From NCBI GenBank assembly GCA_964413825.1, contig CAYPTS010000005.1:1-51205 (forward strand): a DNA stretch of 51,205 nt. Direction: 5' to 3'. Each line of letters begins with the position of its first letter. Within the stretch, counting starts at the first letter, position 1. Made by a program: the position numbers and the translations under genes. This DNA comes from an uncultured bacterium. GTDB lineage: Bacteria > Ratteibacteria > UBA8468 > B48-G9 > JAFGKM01. Shown here piece after piece: positions 23,984 to 29,237 of the stretch. Under the pieces are notes generated by a model that did not search any database, was not told the origin of the DNA, and saw only the letters and a list, made by a program, of their open reading frames with translations.

Positions 23984-24118
23984 TGTCGTTGCGAGCGAAT
24001 TCTGCGCGGCAATCTCAACCTTAATATGAGATTGCGGCGCCTGTTTCGAGCGTGTCATTGAGATTGCGGAGCCTGCCCCGAAACAAAAGTCGAAGGGGTC
24101 TCATTCCTCGCAATGACA
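23984..24118. repeat. Family A palindromic element, copy A2 (double-length composite)
   Basis: Starts tgtcgttgcgagcg and ends cctcgcaatgacaa. It contains three caatctc/gagattgc cores. Its near end is 33 nt upstream of the rubrerythrin ATG. Confidence 0.85.
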
Positions 24119-24149
24119 AAACGTTCGGACTGTGATTTTGCTTTTTCTT

Positions 24150-25287: not shown

Positions 25288-26391
25288 ATGATACCTTATG
25301 TGAATTTCGGAAAAACGCCCTGCAAGATAAGCAGGCTGGGATTCGGTGCGATGCGCCTGCCGACGCATCCGGACGGAAAGGTGAACTTCGACCTTTCAAC
25401 GCCCTTGCTCCGGTATGCCATTGAGAACGGGATAAACTTCTTTGACTCCCACCACTTCTATCATCAAGGACAGAGCGAAGAGGCAATCGGCAGAGCCATA
25501 AAAGGCATTCCGAGAGAAAAACTTATCCTGCAGACAAAAATCGGCATGTACAACAATTACAAAGAAAAAGACTGCCGGCGCCTTCTGGAAGAAGCGCTGA
25601 AAAAACTGAACACCGATTACATAGACTTCTACTTCACCCACAGTCTGAACCTCAAAGACTACCGCGAATACAACAAATTATTCCTGAAGTTTACCGGCAA
25701 AGCCCTTAAACAGGGGCTGATAAGACACAGGGGCTTTTCGGTGCACGACAGGCCGGAAAACATAAGAGAGTTCATCCTCTCCGAAGAATATTCCGCAATG
25801 CTCATCCAGTACAACCTCATTGACCGCACCAATGAAGAACTTCTGCACCTTGCGCATGAAAAAGGCCTGGGAGTTGAAGTAATGGGGCCCGTTGCAGGAG
25901 GACTGCTTGCCATGCCCAATGAAAACATTTTCCGGAACTCGCCGGTAAAAGTAAAAACTTCCGCAGAACTGGCGCTGAAATTCGTTCTGGCAAATCCTGA
26001 CATTGACGTGGCGGTATCCGGAATGTCAACGCTCCGGCAGGTGCAGGAAAACGTCTCAACGGCTTCTGCCCCGGACAGGCTCTCCCGCCAAGACGCGAAG
26101 AAACTGGCCGGAACCTTTGAGGAGAGAAAAAAACTGCTTGAGTTGTACTGCACAGGGTGTCAGTACTGCATGCCCTGTCCGAACAAGGTTGCCATCCCTG
26201 CCATATTCAGGTTTTATAACCTGGCAAAGGTCTACGGCTTCGTCGACAGGGCAAGAAAGGGCTACGCGGGACTCAAGCCGGAAGAAAAAGCATCCGCATG
26301 TACCGAATGCGGGGCGTGCGAACCGAAATGCCCCCAGAAGATATCCATACGGAAGAAACTCAAAGAAGCAAAATCCTATTTTGAGTCCTAA
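25288..26391 (+). CDS. Aldo/keto reductase with a C-terminal 4Fe-4S ferredoxin-type domain
   Basis: Start placed at internal ATG 25288 (MIPYVNFGKT...LGFGAMRL). The C-terminus has two Cys clusters, CTGCQYCMPCP and CTECGACEPKCP. The upstream 251 ORF codons overlap the opposite-strand gene. Confidence 0.85.
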   Translation: MIPYVNFGKTPCKISRLGFGAMRLPTHPDGKVNFDLSTPLLRYAIENGINFFDSHHFYHQGQSEEAIGRAIKGIPREKLILQTKIGMYNNYKEKDCRRLLEEALKKLNTDYIDFYFTHSLNLKDYREYNKLFLKFTGKALKQGLIRHRGFSVHDRPENIREFILSEEYSAMLIQYNLIDRTNEELLHLAHEKGLGVEVMGPVAGGLLAMPNENIFRNSPVKVKTSAELALKFVLANPDIDVAVSGMSTLRQVQENVSTASAPDRLSRQDAKKLAGTFEERKKLLELYCTGCQYCMPCPNKVAIPAIFRFYNLAKVYGFVDRARKGYAGLKPEEKASACTECGACEPKCPQKISIRKKLKEAKSYFES

Positions 26392-26407: not shown

Positions 26408-26437
26408 TTGACACCTGCCCTGACAAGCGGGTATAAC
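26408..26437 (+). promoter_or_regulatory. Sigma70-like promoter ahead of the candidate RNAs
   Basis: TTGACA (26408-26413), 18-nt spacer, TATAAC (26432-26437). Confidence 0.5.
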
Positions 26438-26443
26438 TATAGC

Positions 26444-26556
26444 GGAGAGTTCAGAGAGCAGGAAAGTTTGTGAAGTAAGTATGCGGAAAGAAACAGAACC
26501 AGTACGTGTTTCACAAAGAAGTCCGAAATACTCTGAACTCTCCTTCTCTTTTTTTA
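26444..26556 (+). ncRNA. Candidate small RNA or leader: long hairpin plus U-tract
   Basis: Perfect 13-bp stem 26444-26456/26531-26543 enclosing an inner 8-bp stem 26467-26474/26510-26517, followed by UUCUCUUUUUUU. It starts 7 nt after a TTGACA-N18-TATAAC promoter. Confidence 0.35.
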
Positions 26557-26571
26557 TCCCCATCCCCCTTT

Positions 26572-26898
26572 CAATGATTTCTGATTAAGAAGGCACCCAG
26601 CCGCAAGCCGCAGGTTTCCGGCACGCCCGGTCAGGGGCAAATAGAGATACAGTTGACGGCGAGTGTGTAAGCACAGCTGCAAGACAAGGTGAAAAGCGCA
26701 AGCGTTCCGACCGATTACCTTGCCCGGAGCTGTCTGAACCCTCCGTAGCCTTGGCGAAGGAGGGTGAGTTCTCCGGGAGTCGGATTTCGCCGTAGTGCTT
26801 GCCTGTGCTGAAGCCCAAGCCCGAAGGGCTGTTTCCGAGTCCGGAAACTGGTATCCTTTTGCCATGGACTGCCTTCCGTCCTTAATCAGAAATTATTG
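26572..26898 (+). ncRNA. Candidate large structured RNA of unknown class (alternative: MITE with 18-bp terminal inverted repeats)
   Basis: At least nine mutually nested helices can be paired by hand, including an 18-bp closing stem 26572-26589/26881-26898. Strand inferred from a G-U pair and the upstream + strand promoter. No signature of a known RNA family recognised. Confidence 0.4.
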
Positions 26899-26993: not shown

Positions 26994-27065
26994 GGCCTGG
27001 TAGCCAAGTGGCAAGGCAGCGGTCTGCAAAACCGTTATTCGCCGGTTCAAGTCCGGCCCAGGCCT
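26994..27065 (+). tRNA. tRNA-Cys (anticodon GCA)
   Basis: Cloverleaf by hand: acceptor GGCCUGG/CCAGGCC, anticodon loop CUGCAAA, T-arm GCCGG-UUCAAGU-CCGGC, discriminator U. CCA is not encoded. Confidence 0.9.
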
Positions 27066-27069
27066 CTTT

Positions 27070-27105
27070 CCCCCTCACCTATCCTCTCCCCACGGGGGGA
27101 GAGGG
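27070..27105 (-). repeat. Family B unit B2 (left-end type, reverse orientation)
   Basis: ccccctcacctatcctctccccacggggggagagg, the reverse complement of the ccctct...gggtgagggg unit. It starts 5 nt after tRNA-Cys and its hairpin could act as a terminator. Confidence 0.75.
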
Positions 27106-27160
27106 ATTTAGCGGATAACTTCTTTTTAGGGCTAATACATTACCAATTTTCGGGGAAGTG

Positions 27161-27257: not shown

Positions 27258-27338
27258 CGTCATTGCGAGGAGCGAAGTGACGAAGCAATCTCACATTAAG
27301 GTTTAGATTGCCGCGCCATAATACGGCTCGCAATGACA
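27258..27338. repeat. Family A palindromic element, copy A3
   Basis: cgtcattgcgagg...cgaagcaatctca...agattgccgcg...ctcgcaatgaca. It ends 31 nt before the hcp ATG at 27369. Confidence 0.85.
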
Positions 27339-27368
27339 AAGAACGTGAGTTGGGGCGAGGAGGTAAGG

Positions 27369-29186: not shown

Positions 29187-29203
29187 ACGGTGAATCAATG
29201 CGT

Positions 29204-29237
29204 GAGATTGCCGCGCAAAAGACGCTCGCAATGACAA
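29204..29237. repeat. Family A element, half copy A4
   Basis: gagattgccgcgcaaaagacgctcgcaatgacaa, the right half only. It ends 29 nt before the COG1900 ATG. Confidence 0.7.

Follow-up and report, generated by a model that had tools for sequence, protein, structure and literature searches.

What kind of element lies at positions 26572-26898 of contig CAYPTS010000005.1, which derives from an uncultured bacterium of the Ratteibacteria (assembly GCA_964413825.1)? The stretch of DNA that was analysed, 51,205 nucleotides long and called the window in the following, carries at these positions a 327-bp intergenic element with nested long-range helices, which an initial annotation made from the letters alone had proposed as a large unclassified RNA gene of 327 nt. 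That proposal survives for the structured interior, which has a homologue with kept pairing elsewhere and falls into no Rfam family. It fails for the element as a whole, the ends of which are the left and right inverted repeats (IRL and IRR) of an insertion sequence (IS). Our best explanation, which we regard as probable, is that the element is a non-autonomous IS4-like transposon, resembling a MITE (miniature inverted-repeat transposable element) or a mobile insertion cassette (MIC), and that its passenger is a structure-constrained module similar to a non-coding RNA (ncRNA). The interior core can reasonably be called an ‘unclassified structured RNA-like module’, whereas ‘orphan RNA gene of 327 nt’ is not correct for the whole element.

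The transposon side of this answer is carried by the ends. A scan of 185,579 species-representative genomes with the end-motif CAATRATTTCTGATTAAGRA returned seven loci, clustered in three metagenome-assembled genomes (MAGs); the window itself was not returned, its host genome being outside this collection. Copies and remnants of an IS4-like insertion sequence are present at the following positions:

L015 2006-4347, full-length IS of 2.3 kb.
L018 3402-5662, full-length IS of 2.3 kb.
L019 6050-6261, solo right end, 96% identical to L015.

The matching parts of the window element, the ends of which can be given in short form as CAATRATTTCTGATTAAG, are these:

26572-26898, the 327-bp element, intergenic between the aldo/keto reductase (AKR) gene and tRNA-Cys.
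26572-26589, plus strand, IRL CAATGATTTCTGATTAAG, identical at 18/18 positions to L015 2006-2023 and L018 3402-3419.
26876-26898, no strand assigned, IRR CTTAATCAGAAATTATTG plus five subterminal bases (CCGTC), with identity to the IS right ends.

The 18 bases of the IRR are identical to the right ends at L015 4330-4347, L018 5645-5662 and L019 6244-6261, and the similarity to the right end of L015 reaches 23 nt at 96%. Both full-length copies carry IRL CAATGATTTCTGATTAAG together with an IRR that reads CAATAATTTCTGATTAAG in reverse complement, which is exactly the pair found in the window. Even the asymmetry between the two ends, with G on the left and A on the right, is the same in the window and in the IS copies. 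The initial annotation had taken the 18-bp helix formed by these ends, with its single G-U pair, as part of an RNA fold. Since the same 18-mers and the same G/A difference occur in full-length IS copies, this helix is the IRL/IRR pair of the IS4-like IS.

These identities bear directly on the alternative of a free-standing structured ncRNA gene of about 327 nt, in which the AT-rich outer helix would belong to the RNA and its likeness to IS ends would be secondary. We consider it unlikely: both 18-mers and the five right-hand bases are the ends of transposase-encoding elements with target duplications, the ‘G-U pair’ reflects a mismatch of IRL and IRR that the IS itself has, and the same ends enclose unrelated interiors in L015 and L018. 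What can be said for this alternative comes from the fold and the core, and is taken up with them below.

The two full-length IS copies share 84% identity. Their first open reading frame (ORF), of 152-154 aa, matches DUF6788 (E = 5e-20), and the second encodes a transposase of 501-503 aa that matches DDE_Tnp_1 (PF01609; E = 4e-15 and 2.5e-15). Among several DDE families, the best NCBIfam match of the transposase was ‘IS4 family transposase’ (NF033592), with 76.6 bits and therefore below the cut-off of 115. Target-site duplications of 7-8 bp surround both copies, namely ATTCAAA in L015 and GTGTTTGT in L018. From the translation a YREK-like motif could be read, YSRRWKIEVNGNRELK, in which Y-2-R-3-E is followed by K after 7 residues, compared with Y-(2)-R-(3)-E-(6)-K in the transposases of the IS4 family (PMC2266710). 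The ends begin with CA and fit the end consensus of the IS4 subgroup, -AATR--------WTW; target duplications in this subgroup measure 10-13 bp, and the 7 and 8 bp observed here resemble ISPepr1, with its 7-8 bp (PMC2266710). The DDE_Tnp_1 transposase is shared with the IS4 family, and the CA-starting ends that fit the subgroup consensus and the YREK-like motif resemble it. The 76.6 against 115 bits and the extra DUF6788 ORF at a length of 2.3 kb set the element apart from the family, the 7-8-bp duplications differ from those of the IS4 subgroup, and the E-to-K spacing of 7 differs from the 6 of the family motif. A tblastn search of the transposase against plasmids for a curated IS name gave no match. 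Altogether, these copies define a previously undescribed IS4-like element, which combines a DDE transposase and a DUF6788 ORF with 18-bp ends and duplications of 7-8 bp. From the transposase stop to the right end extends a 3' non-coding region of 200-300 nt that is unrelated between L015 and L018, and one of the two versions is significantly structured; this region looks like a slot where foreign sequence accumulates.

Two further observations were made at these loci. In the MAG FK4.bin61, an AT-rich repeat of about 50 nt opens with the 18-mer of the IS right end (CAATAATTTCTGATTAAGAAATAAAAAAGATA...) and occurs at four loci (L014 7873, L016 4427, L017 6676 and L020 4381) with no partner end within reach; they may be solo ends, or they may belong to another small element. 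Within the 3' non-coding part of the L018 IS there is a hairpin, CCCTCTCCC...GGGAGAGGG (L018 5515-5545), similar to a GC-rich hairpin, CCTCTCCCC...GGGGAGAGG, at window 27083-27106, directly 3' of tRNA-Cys. The two hairpins may represent a second small repeat family or a terminator.

With ends of this kind, the element shows the traits of a MITE: it is 327 bp long, is bounded by inverted repeats related to those of an IS, lacks a transposase and can form a long stem-loop. MITEs are generally under 200 bp but range up to about 400 bp, and long stable stem-loops are classic for them (PMC3184786). The initial annotation had itself named a MITE as the alternative that would refute its RNA gene, with many copies and target-site duplications as the signs. 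Terminal repeats matching an IS are present, while a target-site duplication is absent at this copy and the 51-kb window contains one copy. As for proteins, a Pfam search of all internal ORFs gave no match, and tblastn of the IS transposase against the window found nothing. Neither did BLASTN in distant mode against phage and plasmid collections, and scans of viral contigs produced chance matches only, whether made with the ends, with two conserved blocks or with three k-mers from the interior.

The second part of the answer concerns the interior, of which one stretch recurs at an otherwise unrelated locus:

26636-26863, plus strand, structured core, conserved over about 228 nt; its homologue is L023 1871-1658, minus strand.

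This homologue was reached through the 103-aa ORF on the minus strand of the element, which in an exhaustive phmmer search matched a called protein of 91 aa (P0241, E = 6.7e-6) and so led to L023, a JGI contig from sample 3300001533. Core and homologue share about 85% column identity (alignments A3, A4 and A6), and with the covariance model R1 the window reaches 291 bits and L023 268 bits; over 244 kb, comprising the window and the loci, the model found no further core copy. Conserved blocks of the core are AAGACAAGGTGAAAAGC, TGTCTGAACCCTCCG and AGGAGGGTGAGTTCTCCG, and a 10-nt loop, GAUUACCUUG, is conserved as well and is proposed to pair with CAAGGU at 26685-26690. A metagenome scan with the 20-mer AAGCGCAAGCGTTCCGACCG, which covers two positions that vary in L023, gave three chance matches in high-GC coding DNA. 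In Rfam 15 the window element has no match at the gathering threshold or at E <= 10, and the L023 copy yielded chance-level matches only, down to E <= 10. ARAGORN finds no tmRNA, in agreement with the initial annotation, which had seen no signature of one. The core is similar in size, multi-helix fold and some covariation to the large RNAs RNase P, tmRNA, SRP, 6S, OLE, GOLLD, ROOL, HEARO/omega RNA and raiA and to group I/II introns, and differs from them in that no such model matches the window or the L023 copy even at E <= 10.

The route through a called protein suggests another reading, namely a small protein gene on the minus strand, the 103-aa ORF, whose translation does match P0241. We rejected this coding hypothesis as extremely improbable. 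A 1-nt indel breaks the frame in the only homologue, exactly where the alignment ends; there is no Pfam match; and the third-position bias is not significant, with 13/8/7 differences at positions 3/1/2. Additionally, gene calling on the contig of the window does not include this ORF, a word-indexed protein search gave no match for it, and the substitutions follow base pairs, not codons.

To follow the changes at the level of single pairs, the helices of the element are needed. All helices listed in the initial annotation were complementary as stated, and together with those of our central-arm model they are as follows:

26572-26589 with 26881-26898, 18 bp with one G:T, 17/18 complementary.
26590-26595 (plus strand, AAGGCA) with 26870-26875 (TGCCTT), subterminal helix outside the conserved core, specific to the window copy.
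26613-26621 with 26841-26849, helix competing with the 26831-26848 hairpin.
26636-26641 with 26858-26863, GGCAAA/TTTGCC, helix closing the core.
26646-26654, plus strand, arm of the peripheral helix GAUACAGUU, pairing with 26846-26855 (AACU(G)GUAUC) and competing with the 26831-26848 hairpin.
26670-26809, plus strand, central irregular hairpin arm of 140 nt.
26670-26676 with 26803-26809, helix.
26679-26683 with 26798-26802 as first listed, helix; 26679-85 with 26795-26802 in the central-arm model.
26685-26690 with 26717-26722, helix.
26688-94 with 26785-91, helix of the central arm.
26696-26703, small GC-GCAA-GC hairpin of the central arm.
26706-26711 with 26779-26784, pseudoknot candidate of the initial annotation, placed in the central-arm model.
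26723-26729 with 26771-26777, helix.
26738-26744 with 26759-26765, helix.
26810-26835, plus strand, 3' side hairpin with lower stem GAAGC/GTTTC and upper stem AGCCC-GAA-GGGCT.

Compared with L023, the central arm shows 13 aligned differences. Seven of them fall at paired columns, and all seven keep the pairing. From window to L023, three pairs are changed on both sides: A-U becomes G-C at 26673/26806, C-G becomes U-A at 26680/26801, and C-G becomes U-A at 26724/26776. The remaining paired change turns U-G into U-A (26789). Loops or bulges take up everything else, namely six substitutions and two deletions, one of 1 nt and one of 9 nt, the latter being confined to the apical loop of the arm. 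By chance, at least three both-side pairs would arise from seven random changes on 45 pairs with a probability of about 1.5e-4. In a control in which the 3' partners were slid by 1-3 columns, no double changes were obtained and 29-45% of the cells were paired, versus 99% in the real structure. The initial annotation had named substitutions that break helices as evidence against a structured RNA; between these two sequences, none disrupts a pair of the central arm.

Outside the central arm, similar trends could be observed, on the weaker evidence of a hand alignment. The closing helix GGCAAA/TTTGCC is retained in L023 as GGCAAA/TTTGTC. The peripheral helix CAGTT/AACTG corresponds to GAATT/AATTC, which would add two further double changes if the hand alignment holds; MAFFT offsets this region by one column, so that the evidence from the peripheral helix depends on the hand alignment and is weaker. 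In the case of the 3' hairpin, L023 has GGAGA/TTTCC and AGGC-TCT-GCCT, the shape being kept with a different sequence. In all, the two sequences hold from three to about six compensatory pairs. Neither L023 nor the IS copies have an equivalent of the subterminal AAGGCA/TGCCTT helix. As the end-less copy elsewhere differs almost only by changes that preserve pairs or fall into loops, the core would appear to be under selection for its base pairs; judged from a comparison of two sequences, this structure conservation is suggestive.

The element also folds far more stably than expected at random. Its minimum free energy as RNA is -143.7 kcal/mol on the plus strand (z = -6.5, with 0/100 shuffles as good) and -130.3 kcal/mol on the minus strand (z = -4.9 against shuffles). 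After removal of the outer 24 bp, z-scores of -3.4 (plus) and -2.35 (minus) remain; for L023 by itself, z is -8.2. Taken as a whole, the element forms an imperfect palindrome: aligned to its own reverse complement it scores -46, six standard deviations above the -189 +/- 24 of shuffles, and nhmmer matches it to its own reverse complement with E = 3e-5. The initial annotation had counted its G-U pair for an RNA on the plus strand. No strand asymmetry was found: G-U pairs over the whole element number 6 (plus) and 8 (minus), and DNA-parameter energies are equal on both strands (-71.8 and -71.7). In the helices backed by both sequences the wobble pairs are few, and they are G-U when read on the plus strand. 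The strong z-scores and the covariation in the core are points in favor of the free-standing RNA gene considered above, which, given the empty Rfam result, would be unclassified.

The same data have to be weighed against a plainer explanation, in which the element is an ordinary MITE, a functionless and decaying palindrome, whose helices are nothing but the two arms of palindromic DNA and whose few compensatory changes arose by chance or by templated correction of one arm from the other. Much fits this description. Its ends are identical to IS ends, it is imperfectly palindromic over its whole length, folding is significant for both strands and equal between them with DNA parameters, stable long stem-loops are classic for MITEs (PMC3184786), the promoter scan was empty (see below), and the core is known from two sequences only. 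A neutral palindrome at about 85% identity should, however, show uncompensated changes, and here 0/7 disrupt pairing while three pairs are changed on both sides (p ~1.5e-4). The peripheral helices keep their shape despite a different sequence, and between the two copies the core is better conserved than the ends, which is the opposite of usual MITE decay. We therefore regard a functionless MITE as rather unlikely and prefer a transposon with a structure-constrained passenger.

The L023 copy of the core occupies part of a 391-nt gap that separates co-oriented genes for GH116 and AP_endonuc_2, with no IS-type ends and no transposase nearby. It is enclosed there by a 17-bp imperfect inverted repeat (GTAAGTTTTCACTGAAC / GTTCAGTGAGCATTTAC), of which 9 bp are perfect. 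A core inside a long closing helix (9 bp perfect, about 17 bp imperfect) would also suit a free-standing RNA; against this stands the fact that the outer helix of L023 differs in sequence from that of the window. The terminal repeat of L023 was also likened to the IS ends, with 9-10/18 ungapped identities, which is not significant for AT-rich 18-mers, and the comparison was not used.

The position in L023 also raises the question of a role in cis, the core being a leader, a riboswitch-like element or a transcription insulator for the downstream gene. The core of L023 ends about 60 nt before the ribosome-binding site and ATG of the AP_endonuc_2 (sugar-phosphate isomerase-like) gene, and a weak TTGACA-17-TAAGGT motif is located upstream of it. 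This motif nevertheless failed the promoter scan, no terminator or anti-terminator was found, the downstream gene in the window is a tRNA with its own strong promoter, and the neighbours of the two copies are unrelated. A cis-acting role is accordingly very unlikely.

The setting in the window gives additional information on how the element came to its place. The intergenic placement given in the initial annotation was borne out, with the AKR stop upstream and tRNA-Cys downstream, and a further gene was recognised between the AKR gene and the element:

25288-26391, AKR gene, with TAA at 26389-26391.
26409-26556, plus strand, stand-alone small RNA (sRNA) gene with promoter, hairpin and terminator.
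26994-27066, tRNA-Cys(GCA), with its own strong promoter TTGAAA-16-TGnTATAAT.

The sRNA has homologues at these positions:

L001 7207-7359, sRNA homologue.
L002 5326-5477, sRNA homologue.
L003 2858-3013, sRNA homologue.
L013 2858-3010, sRNA homologue.

Its layout consists of TTGACA (26409)-17-TATAAC (26432), a rod-like hairpin of about 100 nt with conserved internal loops, and an intrinsic terminator with a U-run. Identity exceeds 90% across five Omnitrophota-like contigs (window, L001, L002, L003 and L013), all with the promoter TTGACA-17-TATAAC/T, and its neighbours differ in L003 and L013. The apical sequence GCGG(A/U)AAGAA(A/G)CAG loosely recalls the tetraloop region of SRP RNA; SRP models give no match, and neither does Rfam as a whole, even at E <= 10. 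We consider 26409-26556 a candidate for an unclassified sRNA family. The sigma70-like promoter that the initial annotation had noted upstream of the element thus belongs to this separate, conserved sRNA.

The terminator of the sRNA ends 16 nt before the element starts, and scans of the plus strand for promoters, as well as scans for terminators, returned none that belongs to the element. Syntenic contigs were collected via AKR homologues (L001-L003) and via HCP homologues (L007-L013), and the element is in none of them. It is absent from L001 and L002, the closest relatives with the AKR gene and the sRNA; in L008-L013, relatives with the downstream HCP-Rrf2-HcyBio operon, the region before that operon lacks both the element and tRNA-Cys. 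L007 starts at the HCP gene, so that its upstream region is off the contig and uninformative in this respect. The break in gene order relative to these contigs falls exactly at the element, and the right flank cannot be aligned to L001/L002, for which reason no clean empty site could be defined. An exact-identity look-up of the flanking window proteins gave no record; going by the names attached to their best homologues, the host is Omnitrophota-like. No TnpB, IscB or reverse transcriptase genes were found near either copy. A start 16 nt past the terminator of another gene, no promoter found for the element itself, and absence from the same loci in relatives are further points against a free-standing RNA gene.

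Some further features were noticed. A family of palindromic, REP-like repeats with no relation to the element (GCGCGGCAATCTCA / TGAGATTGCCGCGC, then GCTCGCAATGACAA) occurs in several intergenic regions nearby:

24004-24119, REP-like repeats.
27285-27339, REP-like repeats.
29203-29237, REP-like repeats.

In the HCP-Rrf2-HcyBio-NadA-NifU cluster of the relatives, the NifU_N gene carries an intein (Intein_splicing plus LAGLIDADG):

L007 5603-7117, intein-bearing NifU_N.
L008 12349-13863, intein-bearing NifU_N.
L009 11133-12677, intein-bearing NifU_N.

The intein-bearing gene is also present in L010-L012; in L013, NifU_N has 137 aa and no intein.

Several known systems can be placed next to the window element. 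IMU is a MITE of 288 bp with ISSod9-like terminal inverted repeats (PMC3184786). Like IMU and other IS-matched MITEs, our element measures around 300 bp, has terminal repeats identical or nearly identical to those of an IS, carries no transposase in its core, forms a stable stem-loop and is intergenic; unlike them, it shows no target-site duplication at this copy, and its core recurs elsewhere without these ends. For bcr1, a repeat of about 155 bp in the Bacillus cereus group, a predicted RNA structure is kept by compensatory changes (PMC3184786). A non-autonomous mobile repeat with compensatory base-pair changes between its copies is thus common to both, while bcr1 is shorter, is flanked by 5-bp direct repeats, has many copies, is transcribed and belongs to another sequence and phylum. 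MIC231 cassettes measure about 1-3 kb and consist of the ends of IS231, a member of the IS4 family, around protein-coding passengers, and the target duplications of IS231 are 10-12 bp. These cassettes are cited as refs B2 and B3 in PMC2266710. With them the window element shares IS4-family inverted repeats around a passenger that is not a transposase, and presumed mobilisation in trans by the cognate IS. It differs in its non-coding, structured passenger of about 230 nt, in the two-ORF parent IS (DUF6788 and DDE) and in the 7-8-bp duplications. The element is therefore a new example of an IS-end-matched MITE or cassette, in an uncultivated phylum and with an undescribed parent IS.

From these comparisons a mechanism can be outlined. 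A transposase supplied in trans would bind and cut the two ends, and cut-and-paste would be the way in which the element moves or moved in the past. Its passenger would be a module of about 230 nt that is predicted to fold into a rod or Y shape with the 140-nt central arm. It may have been acquired in the variable 3' non-coding part of the parent IS, and a deletion of the ORFs would then have left the core between the ends. In our model the core acts as a folded transcript, most likely from the plus strand, and hence as ncRNA-like cargo; if the whole element were transcribed, the inverted repeats would add a duplex of about 25 bp at the base. Regarding the present position, the missing target duplication and the break in gene order suggest recombination between copies, and this copy would accordingly be a product of such recombination rather than a fresh insertion. 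A function of the core would first be sought at the three-way junction around 26688-26711 and in the conserved loop GAUUACCUUG of 10 nt.

Several observations weigh against a transposon carrying a captured, structure-constrained RNA module. In comparisons of the interior with the coding and non-coding parts of both full-length IS copies, no similarity above shuffles was detected; the derivation from a cargo-bearing IS is for this reason something that we infer and do not observe. The flanks of this copy, CCCCCTTT on the left and TTATTCTA on the right, contain no 7-8-bp direct repeat and thus no target-site duplication, and the element occurs once within the 51-kb window, the scanned genome collection excluding the host. 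In L023 the hexamer GTAAAA stands just outside both ends of the repeat (1902-1907 and 1618-1623, in the minus-strand reading). Possibly this is a target duplication and the L023 copy a mobile insertion with different ends, although the hexamer is not significant alone; if the L023 copy were itself mobile, the core would be the body of a MITE family and not captured cargo. The covariation is based on two sequences, and in a quasi-palindrome a change in one arm could in principle be transferred to the other by template switching, with no selection involved. Finally, the promoter and terminator scans yield no clear promoter for the element, the transcription of which is a prediction, and the evidence for a strand is weak, G-U counts over the whole element and DNA-parameter energies being symmetric.

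A more far-reaching version of the preferred reading, which we offer tentatively as a possibility, is that the core constitutes a new, unclassified class of structured ncRNA, transcribed from the plus strand and spreading as a passenger within the ends of DDE transposons, in other words a ‘mobile ncRNA cassette’. If this were true, the same RNA would be found between different terminal repeats in different lineages, and the beneficiary might be either the host or the transposon, the latter for instance through control or targeting of the IS4-like transposase in trans.

For the analysis of such loci the case contains a warning, in that the feature which to the eye spoke most strongly for an RNA gene, namely a long and perfect terminal helix with a single ‘G-U’ pair, consists of transposon ends. 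The interior, on the other hand, is not junk, its base pairs having been preserved at two loci that are otherwise unrelated. Should further copies bear this out, a structured RNA from a poorly studied, uncultivated and Omnitrophota-like lineage would be travelling as transposon cargo, which would represent a rarely documented route for the horizontal spread of non-coding RNA genes.

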